From an uncultured Pseudomonadales bacterium (GTDB taxonomy: Bacteria > Pseudomonadota > Gammaproteobacteria > Pseudomonadales > Azotimanducaceae), in assembly GCA_964598305.1 (NCBI GenBank), contig CAZRBP010000001.1, positions 22,501 through 86,500 of the forward strand: a stretch of DNA of 64,000 nucleotides. Direction: 5' to 3'. Shown piece by piece: positions 1 to 12,172 of this stretch (position 1 is the first letter of the stretch; every line of letters starts with the position of its first letter). The notes beneath the pieces were generated by a model that made no database searches, was not told where the DNA came from, and saw only the letters and a program-made list of their open reading frames with translations. A program made the position numbers and the translations under genes.

Positions 1-827
1 CCATGCGCAAAACCGACCTCGTAGTAGACGCCGCCCCGAGCCCCCGCCTCCCCGTGTGTGAAATCGGCGACAAGAAATCTGGACCTCCTGATCTCCGCAA
101 CAATCTCATCATCTATTCGGCCCACGTGCTCCTGCTCATCTATGACAACTGGCTCATATCCCGATTGCCTGATAGCTAGCTTAATGCCCTTGTCCCTCGC
201 ATCCCGCATCGACGGATCGAACCACATTGCCACAAACGCCCTTGATGATGCCGAGGCGTTTTGCTCCAGTGCCTCCAGGTGCGCGTAGCCCCGGAACGTC
301 AACGCGCATTCCTGCGCCGGATTATTGATGCCGTGGCGGTCAATTAGGTCTTGGTCACTTAGGTAGCCTAGGAGATATTCGAAGTCCTCTGAACCGATGC
401 AGCCGGAGTGTGCGAGAAGCTCGTAGAAGGTTCTTTCCGCATCGGTCAGGGACATCCCAATGTTCTCAGCAGTGCCAAATGTAAACTCAAAGGATATGCG
501 GGTTCCCAAAACTGACGATCTGCGCGAGACGTACTTGAGGAGTCCGTCAGCTCGCCTAAAAACGCTCGGATCCCTCCACCTCGTTGCCTCGTCGACGGTA
601 GCCCATGAGATTTCAGGGCAGCGCTCGCCGAGCGCCCGTTGCTCAACGAGCCATGTTGTAAGCCGCGCTTTCAGATGCTCGTCATGCTTGTTCAGCCCTG
701 GCTCCGCAGATCCGGAAATGAAATACATTCCCCCGGCTCGAGGGGAATCAAAGAGGCGCCCGTCCCTGCCTGTTGGGAGTTCGGTGGCCGATGTCCCCCA
801 AATTGCGCATTTAGCGCTCTCTAGCAT
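1..827 (-). CDS. Partial CDS (C-terminus lies beyond window edge): unknown N-terminal region fused to a nucleoside 2-deoxyribosyltransferase/TIR-like Rossmannoid domain
   Basis: Absent from the ORF track because it has no stop in the window. Hand translation of the minus strand from ATG 827-825 (in-frame TAG at 833-831) gives MLESACAIWG..FISGSAEPGLNKHDEHLKARLTTWLVEQR... It ends ..RAFVAMWFDPSMRDARDKGIKLAIRQSGYEPVVIDEQEHVGRIDDEIVAEIRRSRFLVADFTHGEAGARGGVYYEVGFAHG, a pattern typical of NDT-like/TIR-like nucleotide-processing domains. An alternative internal ATG lies at 455. Confidence 0.55.
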   Translation of the reverse strand, partial: MLESAKCAIWGTSATELPTGRDGRLFDSPRAGGMYFISGSAEPGLNKHDEHLKARLTTWLVEQRALGERCPEISWATVDEATRWRDPSVFRRADGLLKYVSRRSSVLGTRISFEFTFGTAENIGMSLTDAERTFYELLAHSGCIGSEDFEYLLGYLSDQDLIDRHGINNPAQECALTFRGYAHLEALEQNASASSRAFVAMWFDPSMRDARDKGIKLAIRQSGYEPVVIDEQEHVGRIDDEIVAEIRRSRFLVADFTHGEAGARGGVYYEVGFAH

Positions 828-1203
828 GCTCTATTGCTCGCCACCGAACTACCTAGAATTCCACCATTCCAATGCGCGTAGTCTTGTGGCGACCTGCTTT
901 CCTGCTAGCGTACAGCGGGCTTGGACGCTGCATACTACGGCTCCACCACCCCACAACAGTAGCTTCTTGACGCCCGTTGCACAGCCCGCGCTTCAGTGGC
1001 ACCAAACGCTTCTTTTCGCGGTTCCCGAAGGTCACAACTACTTCCCTTTGCGTCGATCAGTTAGCCTATCAACCGATCATGGTTGAAACAACTCGCTTCT
1101 CGACGCTGTACGGCGCAACACGAATCTACGTGCTGCTCGACGTGCGCCATTCGGTCAGGGAGCCATCGTTCAGGCGGGTCGGTCTAGGGCTAGGAAGGAT
1201 TGA

Positions 1204-2121
1204 TCACACCGTACCGCCAATCTCCAACCCCTCAATTGTGCTGAACACCTCAGCATAGCGCTGACGCTGCGCCTCCATCCAATCGATGAGTTCGTCCCAA
1301 CGTGTACCCTGTTGAACGGCAATTTCCTGCCAAGTCGTGTAGTAGTAGCCTCGGCTGGTCGATTGGTTGGGGCCGAGGGCTTGTTCGAGAACGTCGGCAT
1401 GCTTGGACATGAAGGGCGCGAGATGCTCGCTGTCGGCCCCCATCCGGCCGCGCAAGAACATGCCGGACGTCTTGCTGCCCACATACATTGACAGCACAAC
1501 CTCCCCGTCGGAAAGCATGGGAACCCAGACGTTCGAGTCGCGCGTAGGCGCGAACACGCCTGGGTGTCTCTCCAAGTAGCGGTTCCAAAACTGGCGCCTC
1601 AGTCGTGTCAACTTGGATTCGGCGGTAGCGGTTCTGTCTCGGAGGGTGATGTCCCAGTTGTTCGGCTGCTCAACGACATCAAACACTGGCGCAAAGGGAC
1701 TGTCCTCGATGCGCACCACGCGAAGCCGGACGGCGAAGAAGGCGAATTCATCGTTCGTATGCTCATTGAGCCATCGGACGGCGGACCGATGGGCTGCTTG
1801 GAAGTCCCGTGCGACCCAGACCACAGTTTTGGCCTCAATTCCAGCCAGATACGTGAGCACCTGCCCCAAGTGCCTATGGTCGGAAACCTCGAGTTGGTTC
1901 TCGATGACGACCCGATCACCCGTTCTGGAGTCCTCGGCGAGGATATCCACCGAGAAGTTGTCGACCGCATCTTCAGTGGCAATGGCCTTCAACTCGATCC
2001 CCAGTGCGTCGGAGAGAAAATCGAGGTGGTCGAAGAGCCAGGGGGTGAAGTCACGGGCCTCATCCGGCCACGCCTCACGGACCGGAGCGTCTGTGAGTCG
2101 GGTAAAGCGGGTTGTCGTCAT
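1204..2121 (-). CDS. PD-(D/E)XK nuclease-like N-terminal domain + DUF4268-type C-terminal domain protein
   Basis: The ORF track gives 1204..2160. I moved the start to ATG 2121 (MTTTRFTRL), which overlaps the stop of the upstream small ORF in ATGA. DILAEDSRTGDRVVIENQLEVSDHRHLGQVLTYLA is a restriction-endonuclease-fold core as I recall it from DUF4268-family proteins. Confidence 0.65.
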   Translation of the reverse strand: MTTTRFTRLTDAPVREAWPDEARDFTPWLFDHLDFLSDALGIELKAIATEDAVDNFSVDILAEDSRTGDRVVIENQLEVSDHRHLGQVLTYLAGIEAKTVVWVARDFQAAHRSAVRWLNEHTNDEFAFFAVRLRVVRIEDSPFAPVFDVVEQPNNWDITLRDRTATAESKLTRLRRQFWNRYLERHPGVFAPTRDSNVWVPMLSDGEVVLSMYVGSKTSGMFLRGRMGADSEHLAPFMSKHADVLEQALGPNQSTSRGYYYTTWQEIAVQQGTRWDELIDWMEAQRQRYAEVFSTIEGLEIGGTV

Positions 2122-2387
2122 GGGACTTCGTCGGCACCCCGTACGAGGACGTACGGCCATAGGCGGCCGTCGGTCGCCTTCCAGACGACATCATGCGCCA
2201 TGCTCTTCAGCCGACTCATGGCGTCCGGGTCGAAAGCGTCGGCCTCAATCTCGACCACGGCCCAAACCCATGCAGCGGAATCGTCGGTGGCGTCCAGCCC
2301 GTCCTCGACAACCCAAGATTGCACGGGGGCCGGCAAGCCTTCGGGCGCCTCAAGTTCGGATCGAATTTTGGCGGTGTCAGCGATCAT
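2118..2387 (-). CDS. Acidic 89-aa hypothetical protein, copy 1 (paralog of 7567..7839)
   Basis: This intact ORF reads MIADTAKIRSELE..VQSWVVEDGLDATDD..WKATDGRLWPYVLVRGADE. By eye it is ~4/5 identical to the 90-aa ORF at 7567..7839. Its stop overlaps the start of the DUF4268 gene (ATGA). I recognise no family motif. Confidence 0.65.
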   Translation of the reverse strand: MIADTAKIRSELEAPEGLPAPVQSWVVEDGLDATDDSAAWVWAVVEIEADAFDPDAMSRLKSMAHDVVWKATDGRLWPYVLVRGADEVP

Positions 2388-2417
2388 GACGTTAACTTAC
2401 GCTTCGGATAGGCTATG
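2126..2417. repeat. Direct repeat copy 1 (~290 bp) covering the acidic small ORF plus ~30 nt of its upstream leader
   Basis: It aligns along its whole length with 7584..7867 in the same orientation. I saw scattered substitutions and one 6-nt indel. Confidence 0.85.
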
Positions 2418-2482
2418 TTCAAACAGAGGACCAGCAACAGTGAAGATGAGAGTAAGACACGAAATTTGTTTCTCTCGTGCCC

Positions 2483-5400
2483 TCAGCGCCACGGAGCCAT
2501 GGTGGTGGCCGAAATTGGGGTATGAAACAGCGTTCTCTTGCGTCTATCGCGATCCTTCTTGATGGCATGGTCCAATCCCGTAGAACCAAGGACTCTCGCA
2601 AGTGTCCTCCGATACGGCGGATCAATGGCCGGGTCGATGTGTTTGAACCACGCAATGAACCGCCGGTCGCAATTCTCCTCCACACGCTTCCACACGTGCC
2701 GGGCTGCACGCTCGTCGATATCTGTCTGCCAGAACTCATGAAGCGCCGCTCGCGCTTGCACATTTCGCTGATAGTCCTGACGGCTGGCTTCCAAGACCGT
2801 GCGAAGCCATGGATCCATGGGCGGATTCAATTCAAGGATATTCCACTGCTCGTCGGCCTCCGCCGATTGGTCGCAGAGACCAAGCAATGTGATCGCCTTC
2901 GCGAGATCAACCGGACGCGGCTTTGACTCAAGGGCTTTGATCCGCTCCAGCAGCCAGTCCACGCGGTCGTGCTTGTGGGAGTAGTGGGAGATCCCGAGCA
3001 AGTCATCGTCCGTAGCAGCCAACGACAAACACTCGTCACACGCAGCGTCACTGGATTCGGATCGGGCCAATTCAAATGGAAACCCTTGGTACGAATCCCT
3101 CGAAAAGATGCTGGATTTGACTCCCGTCTGTATCGCAGCGAATGCTGATAGCGCAACTTCTGGAGCCTTGTCCTTCAGAGCCCTCATCGTGTCCATGACT
3201 GGAAAATTGTTCATCAGAGCTTTGTCGGCGCCGCGCCCTGCATTCTCGGTCCATCTCGACAGCCACTCTTCGACCGGATCTACGCCGCGCTCAACCAACA
3301 TCTTGACACAGTCCAGATAATGGATGTACCAGTAGCGAGGCATGCTCCAAGCGGTGGCGGCTGTTATCGCCTGCAGTTCACCCTCCAAGTAAGCAGCGAA
3401 TGCATCCAGCGCAGCGTCCGAAGAGGCACCCCATTTAACCCTTAGCGCCACGCTTTCATCGGCAAGTTCCGTTTTCGGGACGAGCTCCGGGCGAATCGAC
3501 TCAAGTTGCACTAGGGCGGTGGTTCGAGCGAGTTCATCTAGCTTGTCGGCCCAATTGTTGCCGGAGACCGGCGACACATAGGCCGATTCTGCGAACCGCG
3601 TCAAAGCATCCAAGTGTTGGCCTTCCGAAGCAATGAAGAGTGCTCGTCGTCGAATCTCCCTGTCTTCGTGAGTTGTCAGCATCGGCAGGAAATCCAGCCT
3701 TGCAATCGCTGCATCCTCAAGGCGTTGACCCACATAATCCAGCCAAAGAACGAGACCCTCTCGCGTTGCGCTGGAGATGTCCAGTTGGGCCAAGTCATCC
3801 TCTCCGGGCAAGCGGCAAACTAGCTGCCACTTATCACCCAGCGAGGCGTACGGAGCCGACAGGATTAGGGGAGCCTGTTGTGCGGGTTTCGCGTCGTACA
3901 ACCGCAGCCGCAAGGCACTGATTCCCAACTTGTTGCCCCGTTCCGCGTCTTCCCCCCTGGCCGCTGCCCGTTGTTCTTGATCGAACGCTGCGGCCAGAAG
4001 AGAACGGGATGTCGGGGTGATGATGGTCAGGATTTGCCGGAAGTTGTTCAGCAGCAGGTCGATTTCTCTGCCGCCGGGAGGCAACCCTTGCGCAATCAAG
4101 GTGTCGATCAGCTCAGCTCCCGATTGCGCGTCGACTTGTTTCCAGCCCTCTGGCGCGAGGTAGTCGACCACGGAGTCCAACGGGCTTCTTCTCTCCTTGT
4201 CCTTGGCGCCATCTCGTGCGATTGGTACGGCTGGGCTCTCCCCTTTGTCGTCCATTAAACCGACTGCGTTCTCTCGGGCAACGTCACTCAAGGCTTTGCG
4301 GAGCGTCGATGCGGCTTTCAGGGGAATGATGTGCCCGCACTGCTCGAGTCGACAGATCACCCTACCCAGTGCTTCATCCGCCTCGGACGGGTCCTCGGAG
4401 TTGATCCGGAGCATCCAAGCCACGTCATCCAGTTCGTGGGTCGATTCCATCACCGCCCGGCTCAGCGCCCATGCCTCTATGGCCGCCACGTAAGGCGCTC
4501 TCGCCAAATAGGAACATACTGCCACCGCACAACGAGCGAGGTAGTTCCAATTGCCTTCGACTTGGAACCGAACAGGCGCGAAATCCTTGGCTTGTGGAGA
4601 ACGCATCCAACGTTTGCAGCGAGACCTCACATTTCCTGCATTCCTGTTGTCCCCCCTTAACCTGATGTTGCCGTTCTGCCCCGGAGCGAAAGCGTCAAGC
4701 GCTGGTTCGGACCACGCTGTTCCCAACCATTCGACTAGCTTGGGCAGCAGAGCCTCGTGGAATCTGGGGTACTGCGCAGCGTTTGCCAGCGTTTTGATCA
4801 GCACTTCGTCCTTCATACCGCTTGTGCGATCGCTCAGCCAGTCGCGTTCCGCGACTCCTAGGACTAGATCCGGGTCAAGTCCAGCTAGTCGCCAAAGGTC
4901 TTCAAAGTCCGCACTGGAAAAATTCTGTTCATTGAGCCACCTGCACATCAGTTCGTACCGCAGCTGGCTGTCGGTTCCCTGCTCCACTAAGGCGATTGTT
5001 GTAGCTGCTCTGAGGATTTTCGAACCGAGGCTATGCGCCTTTAACGGGTCCAGGAACTCGGCAATGGTCCCGGCGAAGTCCGTGCGGGAGCCCTGCTTGA
5101 GTTCGGACAGTAGGGCGGCTCCAAGCACGTAATGCACTCTGTCCGTGTTGAGTTTGAACCTGTCGGGATCGGCTCCTGCCGTGAACCATCCCCCAGACGT
5201 CAACTGGAGGACAGCGGCCTCTAGATTACGTCCCGCCGACCCGCTGTCGGCCGAAAGCGTTGCCATGATGTTTCGACGGGTCACGGCGCGTTCCACATCA
5301 TTTCGGAGATCTCGCCCGAGATTCGCGATGAACACTCTCATGCGAGCATCATCCATCCCTACCCTTGGCCCCTGTCGGCTAATCCTGTCCTTCCAATCCT

Positions 5401-6829
5401 CGTAGATGACACGCTCAGCAGTGATGTCCCCGCTGTCCGCGAGTGCTTTGTGGTGTTTCAGTGCGATCGCTGCGAGGCGAGGCACGCGCATTAACTCCAA
5501 CACCGGCTTCGTCAGCACATCACGGTTAACGGTCATTGCTGTCAACAGTTCATCAAGTTCCGCGTCGGAAAAGCCCTCTACGAGAATCTCGATTGGTTTA
5601 GGTTCCAGGTTGGATAGGCAGTAAAGGTCGTCGCGCCACCGATTTGGCCAGCAACTGAGGACGAGCTTGTACATCCCCCCTAGATTGTCTTCCAGAAGCG
5701 GTTGCGCCCAGTCCGCCCAGTCACTGAACAGAAAGTTCTGGTTCAGGCCATCCACAATCACAAGGATTCGAGTGGATTCCCTTCCGCTCCTCTCCCAAAG
5801 ACTAAGCCGACGGAGCCAAAACTCTGCAGATCCGGGACGAGCCTGTTGCGAAAGCGCCTGCGCAATGTCGGCTCGGGCATCGGTTCCCTGAACGGATGTG
5901 GCAGGCAGGTACACGATCAAGGGCGAAGCTGGTTCCAGCGGGTTGATCAACTCATTGCACCAGTCCAGCGCAGCCCATGACTTTCCGGTGCCCTCGTCGC
6001 CTACAAGTGCCGCCATGGGGCTCCTTTTGTCAGCAAACCACGCGTTCAGCTGTTGACTGACACCAGCGCGGCGGATGACGGTGGACTCGCTGTCTCGCAG
6101 GTTGTGGTGGCCGCCCAGACGAGACTTAGCTTTGCGCAACGACGATTGCCCATCGTGCAACCAACGTTGGCACTGTTCGCGGCAACTGGCGTAGCCGACG
6201 GCCGGAGCCACCAAACGATCACGCCACATCGACACCTTCGATTCAAACTGATTGCTCTTCCGAATCAATTCCAAGGCTTGGTGAGTCTTGGACGACTGGT
6301 CTAGGCAGTTTCCACAGGCTTGAGGTGCTGCAGCAGAAATCGCAGCCAGATCGCACAGAGCGTTACTGTGTTCAGGCCAGTCCAATACGAGGACGTCAAT
6401 TCCCAATAGTTCTCCGTGCCTGACAAGCGCCTCCCGAAGAGAGCTGTCAACCTGCCGGGTCGACGCTAGCAACCAAAGGTCGGGAGGCGTTGTGAGGGTT
6501 GACGCTTCAGTCACCTTGGACAGCAATGCATCCTGCGGGAGGCTCGTACTCCGGCTGTACCTTTTGGCTTCAAGACTTGCCTTTACCAAGTTGCAAGGGT
6601 CGGAGCGAACGTCGCTACCCCCTTGGAGCCCGGACTTGACCACATGAAAGGGCTGCCCAGAGAGTTCGCTGAGTGCGGCCGCAAGAAAACCCTCGAATCC
6701 CGACACCCCGGTTGGCTTTAGTCCGTAGATCTGCTTCCAGAGCAGTTCCTGCGCATCCGCTAAGTCCATTGTCGCGCCCAAACGGCCAGCAACAAGCGTC
6801 GCATGGAATCCAGTTCTGTGCCAGTGCAT
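2483..6829 (-). CDS. STAND-class P-loop NTPase with N-terminal Mrr/PD-(D/E)XK-like nuclease domain and ~900-aa helical C-terminal region (Avs/NLR-like sensor candidate)
   Basis: A 1448-aa ORF with an alternative ATG at 6769 (MDLADAQ). Residues ~45-90, FEGFLAAALSEL..QGGSDVRS..ASLEAKRY, fit the Mrr_cat-type D..ExK pattern. Walker A is LVGDEGTGKS (nt 5978-6001). Walker B-like RILVIVDGLN lies ~75 aa further. A long Leu/Ala-rich C-terminus follows. Confidence 0.8.
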   Translation of the reverse strand: MHWHRTGFHATLVAGRLGATMDLADAQELLWKQIYGLKPTGVSGFEGFLAAALSELSGQPFHVVKSGLQGGSDVRSDPCNLVKASLEAKRYSRSTSLPQDALLSKVTEASTLTTPPDLWLLASTRQVDSSLREALVRHGELLGIDVLVLDWPEHSNALCDLAAISAAAPQACGNCLDQSSKTHQALELIRKSNQFESKVSMWRDRLVAPAVGYASCREQCQRWLHDGQSSLRKAKSRLGGHHNLRDSESTVIRRAGVSQQLNAWFADKRSPMAALVGDEGTGKSWAALDWCNELINPLEPASPLIVYLPATSVQGTDARADIAQALSQQARPGSAEFWLRRLSLWERSGRESTRILVIVDGLNQNFLFSDWADWAQPLLEDNLGGMYKLVLSCWPNRWRDDLYCLSNLEPKPIEILVEGFSDAELDELLTAMTVNRDVLTKPVLELMRVPRLAAIALKHHKALADSGDITAERVIYEDWKDRISRQGPRVGMDDARMRVFIANLGRDLRNDVERAVTRRNIMATLSADSGSAGRNLEAAVLQLTSGGWFTAGADPDRFKLNTDRVHYVLGAALLSELKQGSRTDFAGTIAEFLDPLKAHSLGSKILRAATTIALVEQGTDSQLRYELMCRWLNEQNFSSADFEDLWRLAGLDPDLVLGVAERDWLSDRTSGMKDEVLIKTLANAAQYPRFHEALLPKLVEWLGTAWSEPALDAFAPGQNGNIRLRGDNRNAGNVRSRCKRWMRSPQAKDFAPVRFQVEGNWNYLARCAVAVCSYLARAPYVAAIEAWALSRAVMESTHELDDVAWMLRINSEDPSEADEALGRVICRLEQCGHIIPLKAASTLRKALSDVARENAVGLMDDKGESPAVPIARDGAKDKERRSPLDSVVDYLAPEGWKQVDAQSGAELIDTLIAQGLPPGGREIDLLLNNFRQILTIITPTSRSLLAAAFDQEQRAAARGEDAERGNKLGISALRLRLYDAKPAQQAPLILSAPYASLGDKWQLVCRLPGEDDLAQLDISSATREGLVLWLDYVGQRLEDAAIARLDFLPMLTTHEDREIRRRALFIASEGQHLDALTRFAESAYVSPVSGNNWADKLDELARTTALVQLESIRPELVPKTELADESVALRVKWGASSDAALDAFAAYLEGELQAITAATAWSMPRYWYIHYLDCVKMLVERGVDPVEEWLSRWTENAGRGADKALMNNFPVMDTMRALKDKAPEVALSAFAAIQTGVKSSIFSRDSYQGFPFELARSESSDAACDECLSLAATDDDLLGISHYSHKHDRVDWLLERIKALESKPRPVDLAKAITLLGLCDQSAEADEQWNILELNPPMDPWLRTVLEASRQDYQRNVQARAALHEFWQTDIDERAARHVWKRVEENCDRRFIAWFKHIDPAIDPPYRRTLARVLGSTGLDHAIKKDRDRRKRTLFHTPISATTMAPWR

Positions 6830-6940
6830 TCGGGCGGTGACAAATCTAGTGCAAGCTCCTGCCGAATGGTCTGCGGGAGCCGTTTAGCGTTCCTCTTGAA
6901 AGTGCCCGTGGGTTCGAGAAAGCCCTGCAGGGGCGGCGGA

Positions 6941-7450
6941 CTACTCGTCATGAAGCGTCGCGAGCCACTCCGCAGAAGAGGTGAACGTGCGGGGTTCGGG
7001 AGAGTCGGCCCTGTCCCTGACACCGTCGCCAATGAGCACAGCCCATCGGACTTCCTGCATGGTAGCTACAGTCCACGCGTACAGGTGCTCTAGCCGATCG
7101 AGCTCGCGGAACACGTCGTGCGACGACGAAGTACGCAAATCGGCGAAAGCGTCCCGCAACTGCTGGAGTTCTTCAAGGCGATGCTTGAAGTAGCGTTCCC
7201 CCTGCTCCATAGCCTGGACGCCTTCGCTATCGGGATCGACGGGCGATTTGGGATCATGCTCTTTCATGGCTTCAGACAGTACGCTGCCTGCCCGATCAAC
7301 CACAGGGAGAAGACTGTCGTGCCCCTCGCGGAGTCCCTGCGCCTGGGCATCGAGCAGTTCGGCAGAGACAGGCATACCGAGGTCGGGACCCGACACGAGC
7401 GCGGGTAGCGCGCGGCTGATGTCACGTATGGTGTTCGATTGAGCCAGCAT
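6941..7450 (-). CDS. 169-aa hypothetical, predicted all-helical protein (possible HEPN-like Rx6H motif)
   Basis: An intact ORF with a GAGGGG SD 8 nt upstream of ATG 7450. It lies between acidic ORF copy 2 and the STAND gene on the same strand. RELDRLEH sits at aa 115-122. I recognise no other motif. Confidence 0.55.
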   Translation of the reverse strand: MLAQSNTIRDISRALPALVSGPDLGMPVSAELLDAQAQGLREGHDSLLPVVDRAGSVLSEAMKEHDPKSPVDPDSEGVQAMEQGERYFKHRLEELQQLRDAFADLRTSSSHDVFRELDRLEHLYAWTVATMQEVRWAVLIGDGVRDRADSPEPRTFTSSAEWLATLHDE

Positions 7451-7566
7451 TCAAAAGCCCCTCAGGGGACGATTCCAGCAGACACCCACAATAAACCGGA
7501 TTCGCGCCGGATTCGCGTTCTTGATGGCGAGGAGCGTCGCCTGCGCGAGAAGTTCCTTGGAAAGGC

Positions 7567-7839
7567 TCACGAAGCGACTTCGGCTTCGTCGGCTCCCCGT
7601 ATGAGGACGTACGGCCACAGGCGACCGTCGGTCGCCTTCCAGACGACATCACGCGCCATGCTCTTCAGCTGACTCATGGAGTCCGGGTCGAAAGCGTTGG
7701 TCTCGACCACGGCCCAAATCCATACGGCGGGATCGTCGGTGGCATCCAGCCCGTCCTCGACAACCCAAGATTGCACGGGAGTCGGCAGGTCTTCGAGTCC
7801 CTCAAGCTCGGATCGGATTTTGGCGGTGTCAGCGATCAT
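7567..7839 (-). CDS. Acidic 90-aa hypothetical protein, copy 2 (paralog of 2118..2387)
   Basis: This intact ORF reads MIADTAKIRSELEGLEDLPTPVQSWVVEDGLDATDD..WKATDGRLWPYVLIRGADE. It is the first gene of the minus-strand block. Confidence 0.65.
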   Translation of the reverse strand: MIADTAKIRSELEGLEDLPTPVQSWVVEDGLDATDDPAVWIWAVVETNAFDPDSMSQLKSMARDVVWKATDGRLWPYVLIRGADEAEVAS

Positions 7840-7867
7840 GGTGCTAGCTTACGCCTCGGATAGCATG
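7584..7867. repeat. Direct repeat copy 2 (~285 bp) covering the acidic small ORF plus upstream leader
   Basis: It aligns with 2126..2417. The leader CTATCCGA(A/G)GCGTAAG(T/C)TA upstream of the ATG is conserved in both copies. Confidence 0.85.
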
Positions 7868-8030
7868 CATTCTAGGCACCTCCCTTCGCCGCCCATGGCC
7901 GTTGCTCTCCCAGTGGGTGAATTGGAGCCAAGTCCCCATCGGCAACGGCACGGCCTTGAACGCCACTGCCGGTAGGCTCCCCCACATCCACACAGCCCGT
8001 AGTTGTCCCCTCACTCGGGTTGGGCATACC

Positions 8031-8657
8031 ATGCGCCCGTATAAAGGCAGAGCCAACCTAACCATGCGCCATGCTGCCAAATCGGACTTCGTGCCGGTCA
8101 GGATAGGCCCCACCAGCGCGCGGCAGTACATAACCGGGCTGCAAGCGCTGAACCTCATCGACCCGGAATTCGAGTCGAGCGGAGATTGGCACATGCAGGG
8201 CAGTTGGTTCGTGCCCGCCGAAGGCGTCCATCCCAGGGCCTACGAGGCGCTGCTGGCGAACAAGGCCAGGTTTGGATACGTGCTCGCCACGCCGGTGGAA
8301 CTGCTCGGCGAGGATCGGCTATTCGACGCCCGCCCCTCGCTGCAGCGCCTAGGCCATCCCGAGGGCGATTCAACCGAGCCCGTATGGGCAGCCCACCACG
8401 ACCGGGCCATTGTCGATGGCGCCTGGAAGTGGCTTCATCCCAACCCGTCCCTCTTTCCCGGCCCCTACTACGGCCCGGCGGTGGCCAACTGGCTTTGGAC
8501 GAATGCCCAATTCGCGCATCTGCACCGGCTCGCCCGCAAGGTTGAGAGCACCCTGTCCGGGAACAGACAGAAATTGTGGGCCACATGGATGCGCGACCTG
8601 ACGCCGGACGCCGAATGGGAAAGAGGCACCTACCTTAAAGGCACACGTGATCACTGA
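8031..8657 (+). CDS. Hypothetical protein (208 aa from ATG 8031; alternative ATG 8064)
   Basis: The ORF track gives 7902..8657. Third-codon positions are strongly G/C-biased, consistent with coding. It is divergent from the minus-strand block. I recognise no motif. Confidence 0.5.
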   Translation: MRPYKGRANLTMRHAAKSDFVPVRIGPTSARQYITGLQALNLIDPEFESSGDWHMQGSWFVPAEGVHPRAYEALLANKARFGYVLATPVELLGEDRLFDARPSLQRLGHPEGDSTEPVWAAHHDRAIVDGAWKWLHPNPSLFPGPYYGPAVANWLWTNAQFAHLHRLARKVESTLSGNRQKLWATWMRDLTPDAEWERGTYLKGTRDH

Positions 8658-9000
8658 AGGCACCGCCGGGAAGGCGAGTTCCACGCCGCTGCTCGATCAC
8701 TGATTCGGTTAGGTCTCCCTCAGCGCCAATGTCCCCTACGACAACAGCCTCAAGCCGACCGCAGTACCGCATGCGCACAACAGCGTCGGCCAAGACCGCA
8801 GACATTGCCCGGCCCGCTGTGAGACATTGGCCTGTCCGCAGCCGCAAAAAGGAGCGGGCCGACTTGGACATCCCGACATCAAAATCTGGAAAGCGCAGTG
8901 CAATCAAAGGCTTGAATTCATCCTAAGCCCATCTCAAGTTACTCGGAAAAAAGCGTCATCGCCTACATCTTTGTTAGCGCCCCCCTGCCAACATGGGGGC

Positions 9001-10038
9001 ATGCCACACGACGCACTCAGCAAGACCCTGTTCGCCCTGCCGCTGGTGGTGGCCGACCTCCTGCGCCTCATCGCCCGCGCCTGGGTCCACCTGCTCGACC
9101 TCGGCTCCCTCAGGCGCATGAGCGCCGAGCACCCGTCGGCCGACCTCTCCCAGCGCGTCGGCGACCTCGCCTGGCGGGCCTGCTTCCGGGCCGGGGAGTT
9201 GGCTGACGGGTCGCGCCCTTGGCTGTTGCAGCCAATAGAGTGCCAATCCACGCACGACTCGGGGATGGGGGGACGGCAGGCAGAGTACCTCGGTCGCCAT
9301 CTTCAGGCGCTGGAGAGTGACGGAACTCTGGCGAAGGAGGGCGAGGAGCCTCGGGTGCTGTCCGTGGTGGTTTACGACGGGGAGCGGCGGTGGCCCAGGC
9401 TGGCCGCCCCAGCAGGCATGCCCTCCCTCCTGCAGCCCGGCGGCTACGTGGTGCTTGACGCGGGCGCCGGGGAGTTGGAGGATTGGCCTCGTGGCAACCG
9501 GGTGTCTTCGTGGGTGCGGCTTCTGAGGGCGCGCAGCCCCGAGGAGCTGCTGGGACGCCTTGTAGATGCCATTCGGGAGTTTCCGGAGGCGCCGGACCAG
9601 GCCTTCCGGGAGGCGCTGCACACTTGGGCGCAGGCGCTACTCACGCGGATGGCGCCGGACGCGCATGCGCTGCCACCGCTGTTGGAGTTGGAGAACGGAC
9701 AGGGAGAACGGGACATGACGACGCTGCTTGAAGCGAACCTGAGCAAGTGGAGGGCGGGAGTGGTCCAGGAGGGCATCGCCCAAGGCATGGAACGAGGCAT
9801 GGAACGAGGCATCGAGCGCGGCGAGGCGCGGGCGCGGGCGGACCAGCGGGCGCAGCTGCGGCGCCAAGCGGGCCGCAAGTTTGGCGGCGGGGCGGCGGAG
9901 CGTCTGTCGGCGCTGATCGAGGGCGAATCGGACCCGAAGCGCCTAGCCGAGGTCTTGGACTGGATTATCGACTGCAGCACCGAGGACGAGTTTCTTGCCC
10001 ACGCTGAGCGCTGGGTCAGGCCCGGAGTTTCGCGATAG
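9001..10038 (+). CDS. Rpn-family recombination-promoting nuclease / putative transposase (PD-(D/E)XK, YhgA-like)
   Basis: The start was moved to ATG 9001 (MPHDALSKTLF), matching the family-typical N-terminus HD..fK.lF. The core reads RVGDLAWRACF .. IECQSTHDSGMGGRQAEYL. The C-terminus is a repetitive EGIAQGMERGMERGIERGEARARA tail. Confidence 0.75.
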   Translation: MPHDALSKTLFALPLVVADLLRLIARAWVHLLDLGSLRRMSAEHPSADLSQRVGDLAWRACFRAGELADGSRPWLLQPIECQSTHDSGMGGRQAEYLGRHLQALESDGTLAKEGEEPRVLSVVVYDGERRWPRLAAPAGMPSLLQPGGYVVLDAGAGELEDWPRGNRVSSWVRLLRARSPEELLGRLVDAIREFPEAPDQAFREALHTWAQALLTRMAPDAHALPPLLELENGQGERDMTTLLEANLSKWRAGVVQEGIAQGMERGMERGIERGEARARADQRAQLRRQAGRKFGGGAAERLSALIEGESDPKRLAEVLDWIIDCSTEDEFLAHAERWVRPGVSR

Positions 10039-10524: not shown

Positions 10525-11823
10525 TCAAGGATTGGTGTGAATGGTGGATCCAGGATGCCGCTCCGGGATTGCGGGCGGGTTCTCCAGTCCCTCGAAAGCC
10601 AGGTCGTTAACGAACACTTGGCGCCATAGCTGCCGGCGCTGGCCTTCATCCATGCCCGCCTCGTTGCACACGTCCTCCCATCCCGACACAACCGCTGAGA
10701 CCTGCCGGTCGATGATGGCGCGGGCATCCTGCGGCGAAAGCTGGAACTTCGGTGCGGCGGCAAGGCAAAGCGAAAGCTGGCTTCGCCGCGCTTGGCCGTG
10801 GATCAGCATTCCCTGGGATGCTTCCCGCCCAACACGGGATTGGGGGCAGATGTCGTACGCGGGGGTGAGGGACAGGGCGCGTCCGTCCCAGAATGCCGCA
10901 TGGTTGCGCGCGTGGTCGTCGGTGTTCCCGCAGAGGATGTTGAAGGTCATGCGCCCGAACAATTCCTTGAGGTTGCGCCGCGGCGACTGGGCGCCTTGGC
11001 GCAGGGCGTCGGCCAGCTCCTCGTAGGACGCGTATTGCGCGAACATCTCATCGAGGTTGAGCAGGGACAAGCCAGAGAGCATGGCGCGGCGCGTCCACCC
11101 TCGGTCGGTTCGTTCGCGGTCGAAGCGTTTGACGAACAGGACATCCTTGCGCATGGCCTTGACCAGCTTGACGTCGGCAACGTCAAGGCCCGCCTTTTGC
11201 GCTAAGCGCATGGCTATGTACTCGGCCTTGATCACGTTGTGTGTGTCGCTGGTGGATGAGAACTTGGCGATGTGCTTGGCGTCCTCATGGGTGATGAGTG
11301 CCTTGGGCCTCGCGCCGCCGACTGAGGCGCTGTGGAGCAGTGCGCGGTCCAGCGCCGGCGGCAGGATGATGCCCTTTTCCACAGACTCAGCCGCATTGAC
11401 AAGCTGCTCAAGGGTGACTCCGGCGTCGTCTCGGGGGACATGGCGTCGCATTGATTGCTGGAAGTCCAAGGCGCCGGGGCGGTCTGACCCTGACTTGAGC
11501 AGGTAGTCTGCCTCCCGCAGGCCCTCATCCGCATTGCCGAGGGAGTGGTTAATGACGCGGCGCCCCCAAGCGTCGGGGGCGCTATCCCGTAGGGCGTTGG
11601 CAAGCAACAGCGGCGGCTCGGGTTCGATGGTTCCGGCGCGAAGGGGAAGCTCGGTGGGGTGAAGGGCTATTGCGTCGGCCCTGGCTAGGTAGTCAGGCGC
11701 GTAGGCAAAGGCCATCGGGCCTCCAGGCTCCTGCTCGACAAGCGTGCCCGCCGCGATGGGGTCGGTTCGGGAAGGTAGCCAAACCCAAACGGCGACTGGT
11801 CTTGGGTCCGCTTTTGTGGCCAT
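10525..11823 (-). CDS. hipA: Type II toxin HipA-family serine/threonine kinase
   Basis: The start was moved to ATG 11823 (MATKADPRPVAVWVW), 10 nt after the hipB-like stop. Motifs present are SVGGARPKAL, KFS..SDTHNV.KAEY and NTDDHARNHA. Confidence 0.85.
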   Translation of the reverse strand: MATKADPRPVAVWVWLPSRTDPIAAGTLVEQEPGGPMAFAYAPDYLARADAIALHPTELPLRAGTIEPEPPLLLANALRDSAPDAWGRRVINHSLGNADEGLREADYLLKSGSDRPGALDFQQSMRRHVPRDDAGVTLEQLVNAAESVEKGIILPPALDRALLHSASVGGARPKALITHEDAKHIAKFSSTSDTHNVIKAEYIAMRLAQKAGLDVADVKLVKAMRKDVLFVKRFDRERTDRGWTRRAMLSGLSLLNLDEMFAQYASYEELADALRQGAQSPRRNLKELFGRMTFNILCGNTDDHARNHAAFWDGRALSLTPAYDICPQSRVGREASQGMLIHGQARRSQLSLCLAAAPKFQLSPQDARAIIDRQVSAVVSGWEDVCNEAGMDEGQRRQLWRQVFVNDLAFEGLENPPAIPERHPGSTIHTNP

Positions 11824-11833
11824 GGGAACCCTC

Positions 11834-12172
11834 TTAGTAGTCGTGGGAAATCTCGGGTGCAGGGCGCCCGCTCCTCTTTGGAAGGAGCGTGAGCATGTCC
11901 TGCGCTTGTTTGAGGTGCACAGCCAAGCGTGGGCTGTCCGGCACGAAGAGCGGAACGCCCACCAGGGTTGCGGCCTCAAGGACGGCGCCGACCGAAACGG
12001 TTGGCGACCCGCCCTCGATCTTCCGAACCGTGCTTCGGCATACGCCCAAACGTTCAGCTAGGTTGGCCTCAGACCACTGGCGCTTCTTGCGGGCAATGCG
12101 AATCTGACTTGCCAGCATGTGCAGGGCGGCTTCCGTCACCGTGGAGTAAGTGCGTAGGTTTGCGGCTGCCAT
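11834..12172 (-). CDS. hipB: HipB-like XRE-family HTH antitoxin/transcriptional regulator
   Basis: A 112-aa protein with an HTH segment (WSEANLAERLGVCRSTVRKIEGG), immediately upstream of hipA. Confidence 0.75.
   Translation of the reverse strand: MAAANLRTYSTVTEAALHMLASQIRIARKKRQWSEANLAERLGVCRSTVRKIEGGSPTVSVGAVLEAATLVGVPLFVPDSPRLAVHLKQAQDMLTLLPKRSGRPAPEISHDY

Follow-up and report, generated by a model that had tools for sequence, protein, structure and literature searches.

A gene on the reverse strand of the 64,000-nucleotide window (the whole stretch of DNA analysed here) encodes a large immune-receptor-like protein that has a DNA-cutting head, an ATP-binding switch and a long helical sensor tail. 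We consider it probable that this gene (2483..6769, -; 1428 amino acids, stop codon included in the span) specifies an NLR-like ('Avs-type') antiviral protein of the STAND class that works without partners as a ligand-triggered oligomerising nuclease. The locus combines three domains and their catalytic and binding residues with a single-gene organisation and a defence-island context. In the proposed mechanism, the protein would rest as a monomer with its Mrr-type nuclease head held inactive, and its ~830-aa α-solenoid would bind an infection cue, for which a conserved phage protein is the likeliest candidate; the ATP-loaded central NTPase would then drive oligomerisation, which would gather the nuclease domains for indiscriminate DNA cutting, and this cutting would stop phage replication and probably kill the cell (abortive infection). 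For the binding of a ligand, the assembly into oligomers, the degradation of DNA and the abortive outcome, this proposal draws on the characterised relatives Avs2, Avs3, Avs4, Avs7 and bNACHT25.

The first-pass annotation had reported a 1448-aa protein at 2483-6829, and the ORF list and its translation contain this open reading frame intact on the reverse strand. The upstream ATG at 6829 (-) would yield the 1448-aa form, but translation likely starts at the second ATG (M21, nt 6769), since alignments of homologs begin there and a database protein that is 100% identical to the window protein (P0001) has 1428 amino acids; residue numbering throughout follows this shorter version. A chance reading frame is ruled out because the protein has 179 homologs, many of them full length with E=0. 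A search for a promoter-like site at the gene found none, a result that is uninformative given the high-GC genome. The effector-NTPase-sensor layout proposed in the earlier annotation is borne out by AlphaFold2 (AF2) models, which place a nuclease at aa 1-135, an NTPase module at aa 247-600 and an α-solenoid at aa 601-1428.

On conservation, the AF2 model and Mrr_cat matches in relatives, the N-terminus (aa 1-135; 6365..6769, -) is a PD-(D/E)xK nuclease of the Mrr type, with activity predicted. The motifs that had suggested this assignment, FEGFLAAALSEL (nt 6662-6697), QGGSDVRS (nt 6602-6625) and ASLEAKRY (nt 6557-6580), are present, and the residues singled out in them correspond to the family-invariant E...D...ExK pattern, namely E26 (nt 6692-6694, -), D53 (nt 6611-6613, -), E67 (nt 6569-6571, -) and K69 (nt 6563-6565, -). 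Among 279 relatives, down to ~23% identity, E26, Q49, G51, D53 and K69 are invariant in the 258-274 residues aligned per column, and position 67 is Glu in 270 sequences and Gln in 4. In the AF2 model the domain has the topology α-β-β-β-α-β (H25-37/E41-46/E51-56/E64-69/H79-90/E98-103), so that the catalytic E...D...(E/Q)xK residues sit on a PD-(D/E)xK core, with E26 on helix 25-37 (α1), D53 on strand 51-56 (β2) and E67-x-K69 on strand 64-69 (β3). The window domain itself gave no match to Pfam Mrr_cat (PF04471) at E<=10, and seven of eight distant relatives match this model in their N-terminal domains, two of them at the gathering score (21.7 and 21.8 against 21 bits), so homology to Mrr_cat is transitive through the family. 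One relative (P0107) matches a PADLOC REase model over aa 48-145. A helical linker (aa 136-246; 6032..6364, -), modelled as helices H140-246 with pLDDT mostly >80 and conserved across the family, joins the nuclease to the NTPase.

Sequence motifs and the AF2 model indicate that the centre of the protein is a STAND NTPase, as had been claimed. Its P-loop nucleotide-binding domain (aa 247-400; 5570..6031, -), delimited by the AF2 model and invariant residues, contains the Walker A motif GDEGTGKS exactly where the first annotation had put it (nt 5978-6001, -), the Walker B motif ILVIVDG (nt 5747-5767, -), whose Asp lies 77 aa past the Walker A Lys where a spacing of ~75 had been estimated, and the sensor-1 position LSCWP (nt 5645-5659, -). 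Both K263 of Walker A and D340 of Walker B are invariant in all 279 sequences, and GDEGTGKS and ILVIVD lie on a five-strand ASCE core (β1 252-256, β2 284-289, β3 335-340, β4 367-373, β5 393-396), as in the P-loop of the STAND superfamily. Helical and winged-helix-like domains (aa 401-600; 4970..5569, -; AF2 model, Foldseek), which include a family-invariant P430-R431 motif (MRVPRL), complete the module, and this order of nucleotide-binding, helical and winged-helix domains is that of solved STANDs. The model of the nuclease and STAND part (pLDDT 84, pTM 0.83) returned 111 Foldseek matches in the PDB at E<=1e-3 when aa 1-600 were searched, the best being the EcAvs4-portal structure (8dgf; E=4e-9, 588 columns of the 600 residues), and other top-ranked matches included NLRP7/9/3, Dark/Apaf-1, NLRC4, ZAR1, NRC, EfAvs5 and many ORC/Cdc6 AAA+ chains, with alignments to NLRP, Apaf-1 and ORC modules spanning 370-640 columns. 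Profile matches are found mainly in relatives: Pfam NACHT (PF05729) matches 18 of 32 (best E 1.2e-7), and RefSeq labels some relatives 'NACHT domain-containing protein'. The window protein lacks a NACHT match, scores 20.6 bits with Pfam AAA_22, short of the 27-bit cutoff, and gave no match to PADLOC and NCBIfam models.

In NACHT proteins, acidic residues follow Walker B and sensor-1 carries an arginine. Where the NACHT signature has hhhhDGhDE and T/S-S-R-P, the window protein has DGLNQ at Walker B and SCWP at sensor-1, an equivalence of positions that comes from motif alignment and descriptions of NACHT proteins rather than from a nucleotide-bound structure. The family consensus at Walker B, taken over 279 sequences, is DGLN[E/Q], with Asn at position +3 in 96% and either Glu (141) or Gln (138) at +4, and the sensor-1 residue is Arg in 144 and Trp in 132; both positions toggle repeatedly within the family. 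Because Gln replaces the Walker-B-proximal Glu and Trp replaces the sensor-1 Arg, with the Lys and Asp kept, the window protein would probably still bind ATP yet turn over little of it, and so work as a switch that goes one way. Alternatively, loss of the Walker-B Glu and the sensor-1 Arg could mean that NTPase switching is altered or lost.

The C-terminal region (aa 601-1428; 2486..4969, -) is a putative sensor, predicted from AF2, Foldseek and hhalign to form a long α-solenoid of the HEAT/TPR-like kind. The Leu/Ala/Arg-rich helical C-terminus noted earlier comprises ~870 aa (Ala/Leu/Arg 13.1/11.7/8.5%), and its model (aa 560-1428; pLDDT 87, pTM 0.85) is all-helical. Foldseek retrieved only generic HEAT solenoids (such as importin-β, SF3B1 and CAND1; TM 0.15-0.2) with this model; it returned no solved Avs or NLR sensor that resembles it, and 8dgf was not retrieved. 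By hhalign, homology to distant subgroups runs through the entire sensor. Within the solenoid, the first ~230 aa (aa ~600-800) are as conserved across phyla as the enzymatic domains, and the most variable part is aa ~800-1280. The extreme C-terminal tail (aa 1405-1428; 2486..2557, -) consists of a basic stretch followed by LFHT and then TMAPW-R, and its motif LF[GH]T...[MQ]xPW-x is kept even in ~24%-identical cyanobacterial and acidobacterial members.

Among named systems, EcAvs4 (PDB 8dgf), which senses the phage portal, is structurally closest to the head and NTPase (aa 1-600), and like the window protein it is a single-protein system whose nuclease lies at the N-terminus, ahead of the STAND NTPase. 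Phage activates Avs4 as a DNA endonuclease without sequence specificity, and its nuclease is reportedly of the Mrr-like type. However, EcAvs4 shares only 11% sequence identity with the window protein and its sensor is unmatched by the C-terminal model. Membership of Avs4 was rejected, as neither the window protein nor its relatives match the PADLOC Avs4 model and the C-terminal model matches HEAT solenoids only. Avs2 was likewise rejected: the window protein has no PADLOC match, and the matches of five of 32 relatives to the Avs2 model are weak and confined to the stretch between P-loop and Walker B (aa 162-364, profile positions 250-446 of 1504, 15-22 bits). KpAvs2 also shares its operon with accessory genes, unlike the solitary STAND gene in the window. 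The architecture that the first annotation likened to Avs proteins holds; no Avs1-5 or bNACHT profile in PADLOC v2 matches the protein, and 'Avs-like' therefore denotes a probable mode of action rather than membership of such a clade.

A closer relationship was found with two proteins gathered as defence STANDs in the catalogue of Lee et al. 2026 (Nature 657:735), which are given in its Supplementary Table 1 as seeds 404 and 503 (WP_124253864.1 from Cereibacter sphaeroides and WP_181620452.1 from Enterobacter sp.). The NTPases of these seeds are homologous to the window family profile (hhalign 99.3%, E 2.5e-20 for WP_124253864.1; 98.6%, E 1.3e-15 for WP_181620452.1), BLAST searches with them matched 273 and 206 of the 279 family members, respectively, and the NTPase domain of the Cereibacter seed is 79% identical to that of one family member (L060). 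Proteins of the Cereibacter-type subgroup resemble the window protein in having an Mrr-type head from residue ~10, a size of 1.5 thousand aa and a sensor homologous end to end to that of the window protein (hhalign 99.5%, 788 columns). They differ in that identity is ~25% over the head and NTPase and 12-17% over the sensor, and their sensors are ~90 aa longer, so ligand specificity may differ. The Avs proteins described as functionally tested in Lee et al. 2026 include one from Cereibacter sphaeroides, which may be seed WP_124253864.1.

The bNACHT25 and bNACHT32 proteins (NACHT clade 6) are similarly built, with an N-terminal PD-(D/E)xK DNase, a NACHT-type centre and a helical C-terminus, and the nuclease residue D48 that bNACHT25 requires (PMC12169576) is placed much like D53 of the window protein. 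They differ in motifs and sequence: bNACHT25 has canonical DSVDE and ASR motifs in place of DGLNQ and SCW, and membership was rejected because the bNACHT25 NTPase (WP_001702659.1) aligned with the family profile over just 74 columns, P-loop to Walker B, at an hhalign probability of 15%, and had no BLAST match to the 279 members. Sensing might be indirect, with the solenoid guarding a phage-perturbed host factor (such as a chaperone or translation factor) under the same effector logic. Dependence of bNACHT25, also a PD-(D/E)xK-NACHT protein, on host DnaJ (PMC12169576), the incorporation of EF-Tu by SeAvs7, and the conservation of aa ~600-800 across phyla, compatible with a host partner that is itself conserved, lend this idea some weight, but we consider it unlikely, since direct binding of phage proteins is the rule in most characterised Avs families, variability rises markedly in the middle of the sensor (aa 800-1280), as expected of an arms-race surface, and the family is unrelated to bNACHT25 beyond the P-loop.

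The organisation of the locus is that of a self-contained single-gene system that lacks a conserved partner, as clustering of 81 family loci found no neighbouring gene that is conserved in more than five of them. In the window its neighbours are PDC-S11, an AbiEi-like gene and HipA, and positions 1-8000 have a GC content of 57-60%, lower than the 62-68% of most of the remaining window. All inspected family contexts have defence, toxin-antitoxin or mobile genes as neighbours, in the combinations HsdR and KAP NTPase; integrase and methyltransferase; ScoMcrA, SLFN helicase and Fic; type I R-M, Abi_C and PRTase-CE; and an AAA_15/21 protein with an adjoining uncharacterised ORF. The gene had been called the sensor/effector core of the island; the sensor/effector layout is upheld, but 'core' claims too much for a gene that is self-contained and stands beside independent defence or toxin-antitoxin genes.

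A 169-aa ORF directly upstream (6941..7450, -) accompanies the STAND gene in its closest relative, where the ORF upstream of P0002 is 91% identical, and it might be a required inhibitor, antitoxin or adaptor in a two-gene system. Both genes have the same orientation, with 112-172 nt between them, and comparison of the window with the metagenomic contigs L086 and L087 by blastn delimits a 5.06-kb block holding the pair (2447..7506, -), which is 90.8% DNA-identical to L086 with flanks unrelated on both sides, so that a unit of 91% identity with sharp borders recurs in two otherwise unrelated neighbourhoods. Against such a partnership, which we regard as quite improbable, tblastn and clustering show the ~80 remaining STAND family loci to lack the small ORF, its own family (84 clusters) occurs in housekeeping or unrelated contexts in three of three loci inspected, and the STAND family is otherwise solitary; the 169-aa ORF is thus probably not a functional partner.

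It is also very improbable, in our judgement, that the protein is no immune sensor at all, but a type IV-like restriction enzyme that depends on NTP and on DNA modification, or else a STAND of DNA repair or regulation, with DNA or chromatin as the target of its NTPase and solenoid. Type IV restriction enzymes typically carry Mrr-type nuclease domains, the HEAT solenoids of condensin, CAND1 and Mot1 are among the weak fold matches, and non-defence STAND clades are interspersed among defence clades. By Foldseek, however, the NTPase is of the STAND/NLR type and not a translocase or McrB-type GTPase, the architecture is canonically effector-NTPase-sensor, the context consistently consists of defence islands, and the related seeds listed by Lee et al. 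were collected as defence STANDs.

The family to which this antiviral STAND protein belongs is widespread but poorly annotated, with 649 representative clusters at 50% identity in an exhaustive search, a uniform length of 1.4-1.6 thousand aa and members in many phyla. Tentatively, and as a possibility that we would not bet on, the ~1430-aa subfamily of the window may respond to a cue, from phage or host, outside those of the assigned Avs families, may act as a hydrolysis-deficient, ATP-binding-only 'one-shot' switch, and may use its LF[GH]T...xPW tail as an autoinhibitory latch; the one-shot reading is suggested by the Gln and Trp at the Walker-B Glu and sensor-1 Arg positions and by the E/Q and R/W toggling in the family. 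This kind of anti-phage protein is already known, and the gene adds one good further example of it rather than a new kind.

The nuclease-STAND-solenoid gene on the minus strand of the window encodes a protein that direct annotation leaves as a 'hypothetical protein'. Its sole Pfam match is AAA_22, at 20.6 bits and below the cutoff of 27, with no match to NACHT, NB-ARC or Mrr_cat; PADLOC v2 and NCBIfam profile searches returned nothing, and neither did PDB sequences queried by single sequence and by family profile. Because direct profile searches gave a sub-threshold AAA_22 match or nothing, we relied on relatives and structure prediction. The reading frame described in a first-pass annotation, made by eye, is uninterrupted over 1448 codons (2483-6829, minus strand), and all peptide strings quoted there were found, including the Walker A motif GDEGTGKS at nt 5978-6001. 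The Walker B Asp, estimated to lie ~75 aa further on, is 77 residues past the Walker A Lys, and the proposed Ala/Leu/Arg-rich composition of the C-terminus is borne out for the last ~870 residues. A 100%-identical database protein is 1428 aa long and the alignments of 40 homologs start at the second Met, so M21 (nt 6769) was taken as the start and as the origin of the numbering used here; no convincing Shine-Dalgarno sequence precedes either ATG. Nor did a promoter and terminator scan yield a promoter-like site, which says little in a high-GC genome.

The protein belongs to a large family. A word-indexed search recovered 179 relatives, most of them full length (1420-1460 aa) and ranging from 87% to 30% identity, and an exhaustive HMMER search against 1.84 billion cluster representatives, queried with aa 230-1428, gave 649 clusters at E<=1e-3, of which 521 reach E<=1e-10. 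In almost every full-length hit the aligned part begins at about residue 230 of a 1400-1600-aa protein, and the family architecture is therefore uniform. When each species was represented by a single genome, the scan yielded 80 loci, found among the γ-proteobacteria in Pseudomonadales, Serratia, Rahnella, Pseudomonas, Xanthomonas and Shewanella, among the α-proteobacteria in Mesorhizobium, Rhizobium, Azospirillum, Bradyrhizobium and Rhodobacter, and beyond these in Cyanobacteria, Acidobacteriota, Thermodesulfobacteriota (also given as Desulfobacterota), Planctomycetota, Anaerolineae and others. Family members are also carried by 12 plasmids, and a search of phage genomes gave no match. Some members carry the RefSeq label 'NACHT domain-containing protein'. 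The nuclease-STAND family escapes 2023-era defence annotators and the versions of Pfam and NCBIfam that were searched.

Conservation in the N-terminal domain centers on a small set of residues. Among 279 members aligned to the family HMM, with gapped rows excluded from each count, E26 is conserved in 258 of 258, Q49, G51 and D53 each in 272 of 272, and K69 in 274 of 274, while position 67 is E in 270 sequences and Q in four. An AlphaFold2 model of aa 1-600 (pLDDT 84.2, pTM 0.83) places E26 on a helix (residues 25-37), D53 on a strand (51-56) and E67 and K69 on another strand (64-69), in a predicted alpha-beta-beta-beta-alpha-beta fold that is a PD-(D/E)xK core. Pfam Mrr_cat, which does not match the window protein's own N-domain, is matched by seven of eight N-domains from distant family members, two of them at or above the gathering score, and one relative matches the PADLOC model of an Argonaute-associated REase. 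The earlier description of this region as a D..ExK domain of the Mrr_cat type is thus supported by transitive homology, by the invariance of these residues and by topology.

The central domain is a STAND NTPase of the NACHT-like type. When the aa 1-600 model was compared with the PDB by Foldseek, the best match was EcAvs4 bound to portal (8dgf; E=4e-9), in an alignment of 588 columns that includes the nuclease head, followed by NLRP7, ORC1/Cdc6, Dark/Apaf-1, NLRP9, NLRP3, NLRC4, ZAR1, NRC and EfAvs5. In addition, 18 of 32 profile-searched relatives match Pfam NACHT (best E 1.2e-7). Across the 279-member alignment K263 and D340 are invariant, and the acidic pair that follows Walker B in the NACHT type is replaced, with N at +3 in 96% of members and a split at +4 from the Walker B Asp between E (141 members) and Q (138). 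A second split, R in 144 against W in 132, is seen at sensor-1, which follows strand beta4. Within the segment running from Walker B to sensor-1 (aa 335-375; 5645-5767, minus strand), the window protein reads DGLNQ and SCWP, with Q at +4 and W at sensor-1. All four E/Q and R/W combinations occur, even among close relatives, so the idea of a tidy 'hydrolysis-dead clade', in which E-to-Q and R-to-W would change together, was rejected. We infer that the family probably needs to bind nucleotide, whereas hydrolysis may be dispensable or variable, a proposal echoed by the degenerate NTPase noted in the literature for KpAvs8 and by the published finding that SeAvs7 binds MCP and EF-Tu independently of ATP. 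The natural E/Q and R/W variants could serve as they stand to test whether STAND activation or reset depends on ATP hydrolysis.

The remainder of the protein forms the putative sensor. A model of aa 560-1428 (pLDDT 87.0, pTM 0.85) is helical throughout but for two disordered loops (aa ~690-707 and aa ~840-858), and its Foldseek matches are generic HEAT solenoids only (Kap95/importin-beta, SF3B1, CAND1 and mTOR; E~1e-4, TM 0.15-0.2), with no Avs or NLR sensor among them. The region is therefore an alpha-solenoid of the HEAT/TPR-like kind for which no close counterpart has been solved. It is well conserved to aa ~800, least so over aa 800-1280 and more so again over the last ~150 aa, where the extreme C-terminal tail (aa 1405-1428; 2486-2557, minus strand) contains a basic stretch, LFHT and TMAPW-R. 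The corresponding consensus, a basic stretch followed by LF[GH]T and then [MQ]xPW plus one residue, is conserved superfamily-wide, including in cyanobacterial members of ~24% identity. The tripartite interpretation offered in the first-pass annotation is upheld by these domain assignments; its wording of the gene as the 'core of the island' needs softening.

Several known systems were considered as possible homes for the protein. Five of the 32 relatives match PADLOC Avs2, but only from the P-loop to Walker B and at 15-22 bits, a weak similarity. Membership in bNACHT25 clade 6 was rejected, since the bNACHT25 NTPase, in the sequence listed in Supplementary Table 1 of Lee et al. 2026 (Nature 657:735), reached 15% probability against the family profile and no member gave a BLAST match. 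By profile, the window protein is not Avs2, Avs4 or bNACHT25. Two entries in that same table, a catalogue of defence STAND proteins, are clear homologs of the family by hhalign: no. 404 (WP_124253864.1, Cereibacter sphaeroides; probability 99.3%) and no. 503 (WP_181620452.1, Enterobacter sp.; probability 98.6%). The NTPase domain of the Cereibacter entry is 79% identical to that of a Rhodobacter capsulatus family member (locus L060), and by profile-profile comparison the window subfamily's sensor is homologous over ~790 columns to those of the Cereibacter-type subgroup and two further distant subgroups (probability 99.5-99.9%). Among the Avs representatives that core phage proteins activate, the Fig. 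5 legend of Lee et al. gives 'Cs, Cereibacter sphaeroides'. The family thus already figures among the catalogued defence STAND proteins, and the window protein is one of its divergent members, sharing with the catalogued subgroup ~25% identity in the head and NTPase and 12-17% in the sensor.

No conserved partner gene accompanies the family. When the ORFs lying up to 6 kb from the gene were clustered across 81 non-redundant loci, no cluster occurred in more than five, and the family therefore constitutes a single-gene system. The commonest neighbor is HipA (5/81 loci), and other recurrent neighbors are Fic-like by eye (four loci), integrase-like (three), PIN-like (three) and relaxase-like (three). 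All annotated neighborhoods are defence or mobile contexts: one contains HsdR, a KAP NTPase and an IS element; a second an integrase and an N6/N4 methyltransferase; a third ScoMcrA/NOV_C, MazG, an SLFN helicase and Fic; a fourth type I R-M, Abi_C, PRTase-CE and NYN; and a fifth an AAA_15/21 protein with an adjacent uncharacterized ORF.

The window offers a similar setting. On one side of the STAND gene, 323 nt downstream and on the same strand, lies a candidate single-gene defence system, PDC-S11 (1204-2160, minus strand; 318 aa; PADLOC E 6e-86; no Pfam match). On the other side are genes for an AbiEi-like protein (7902-8657, plus strand; PADLOC E 6e-17), a YhgA/Rpn-like Transposase_31 protein (8827-10038, plus strand) and a HipA-family toxin kinase (10525-11979, minus strand; HipA_C E 5e-52); the AbiEi-like gene has no adjacent AbiEii nucleotidyltransferase, the next ORF being the YhgA/Rpn-like one. 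The presence of the STAND gene flags window positions 1-12 kb as an island of defence and toxin-antitoxin genes. GC content is 57-60% over positions 1-8000 compared with 62-68% in most of the remaining window, a composition consistent with horizontally acquired island DNA. Further GC dips occur near 28-30, 38-40, 46-48 and 60-62 kb. The island's left border falls outside the window, and searching the window for Rfam families and tRNAs, as possible integration sites, gave no match. At the left edge, a 208-aa mechanical ORF (460-1086, plus strand) has an odd, low-complexity-like composition and may be non-coding or a pseudogene.

Directly upstream of the STAND gene is a 169-aa ORF (6941-7450, minus strand) with no Pfam domain, whose family comprises 84 clusters at 45-93% identity. 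Both genes lie in a 5.06-kb block (window 7506 to 2447) that is 90.8% identical to positions 1111-6153 of a metagenomic contig (L086); the block has sharp ends and flanks unrelated to those of that contig, and accordingly behaves like a self-contained cassette that can be transferred. Travel within such a sharply bounded block would fit a role for the small ORF as partner of the STAND protein, but we consider this very improbable, as its 84-cluster family occupies unrelated contexts elsewhere: homologs sit beside housekeeping genes in two genomes and in an Upx-like/ThiF/AAA_21 island in a third. The ORF is also absent from all other STAND-family loci, which together with these contexts rules it out as a general partner. 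The 169-aa ORF is accordingly best regarded, from its distribution, as a probable hitchhiker, and its family may mark an island insertion hotspot. In one genome with a small-ORF homolog (L091; 803-4534 and 8885-14504), an Upx-like gene (PF28173) adjoins that homolog; a ThiF gene, an AAA_21/AAA_15 gene and a helicase gene of very large size (DEAD/MZB/Peptidase_S24) are also present, making this a further dense island of defence genes.

To the domains, residues, solitary organization and island context documented here, a mode of action can be added by analogy with Avs3, Avs4, KpAvs2, bNACHT25 and Avs7-21. The solenoid would bind a conserved phage protein or, less likely, respond to a perturbed host factor; the NTPase would oligomerize in its ATP-bound state; and the Mrr-type heads, once clustered, would degrade DNA. 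Avs3 and Avs4 are non-specific DNA endonucleases activated by phage (PMC11564622), bNACHT25 requires nuclease residue D48 (PMC12169576), and KpAvs2, laid out like the window protein as Mrr, STAND and a long C-terminus, acts by abortive infection (PMC11564622). The ligand of the HEAT-like sensor, if found, would extend the map of phage components that bacteria sense and, if active, this widespread and taxonomically broad nuclease-STAND family would be an addition to the bacterial pattern-recognition receptors.
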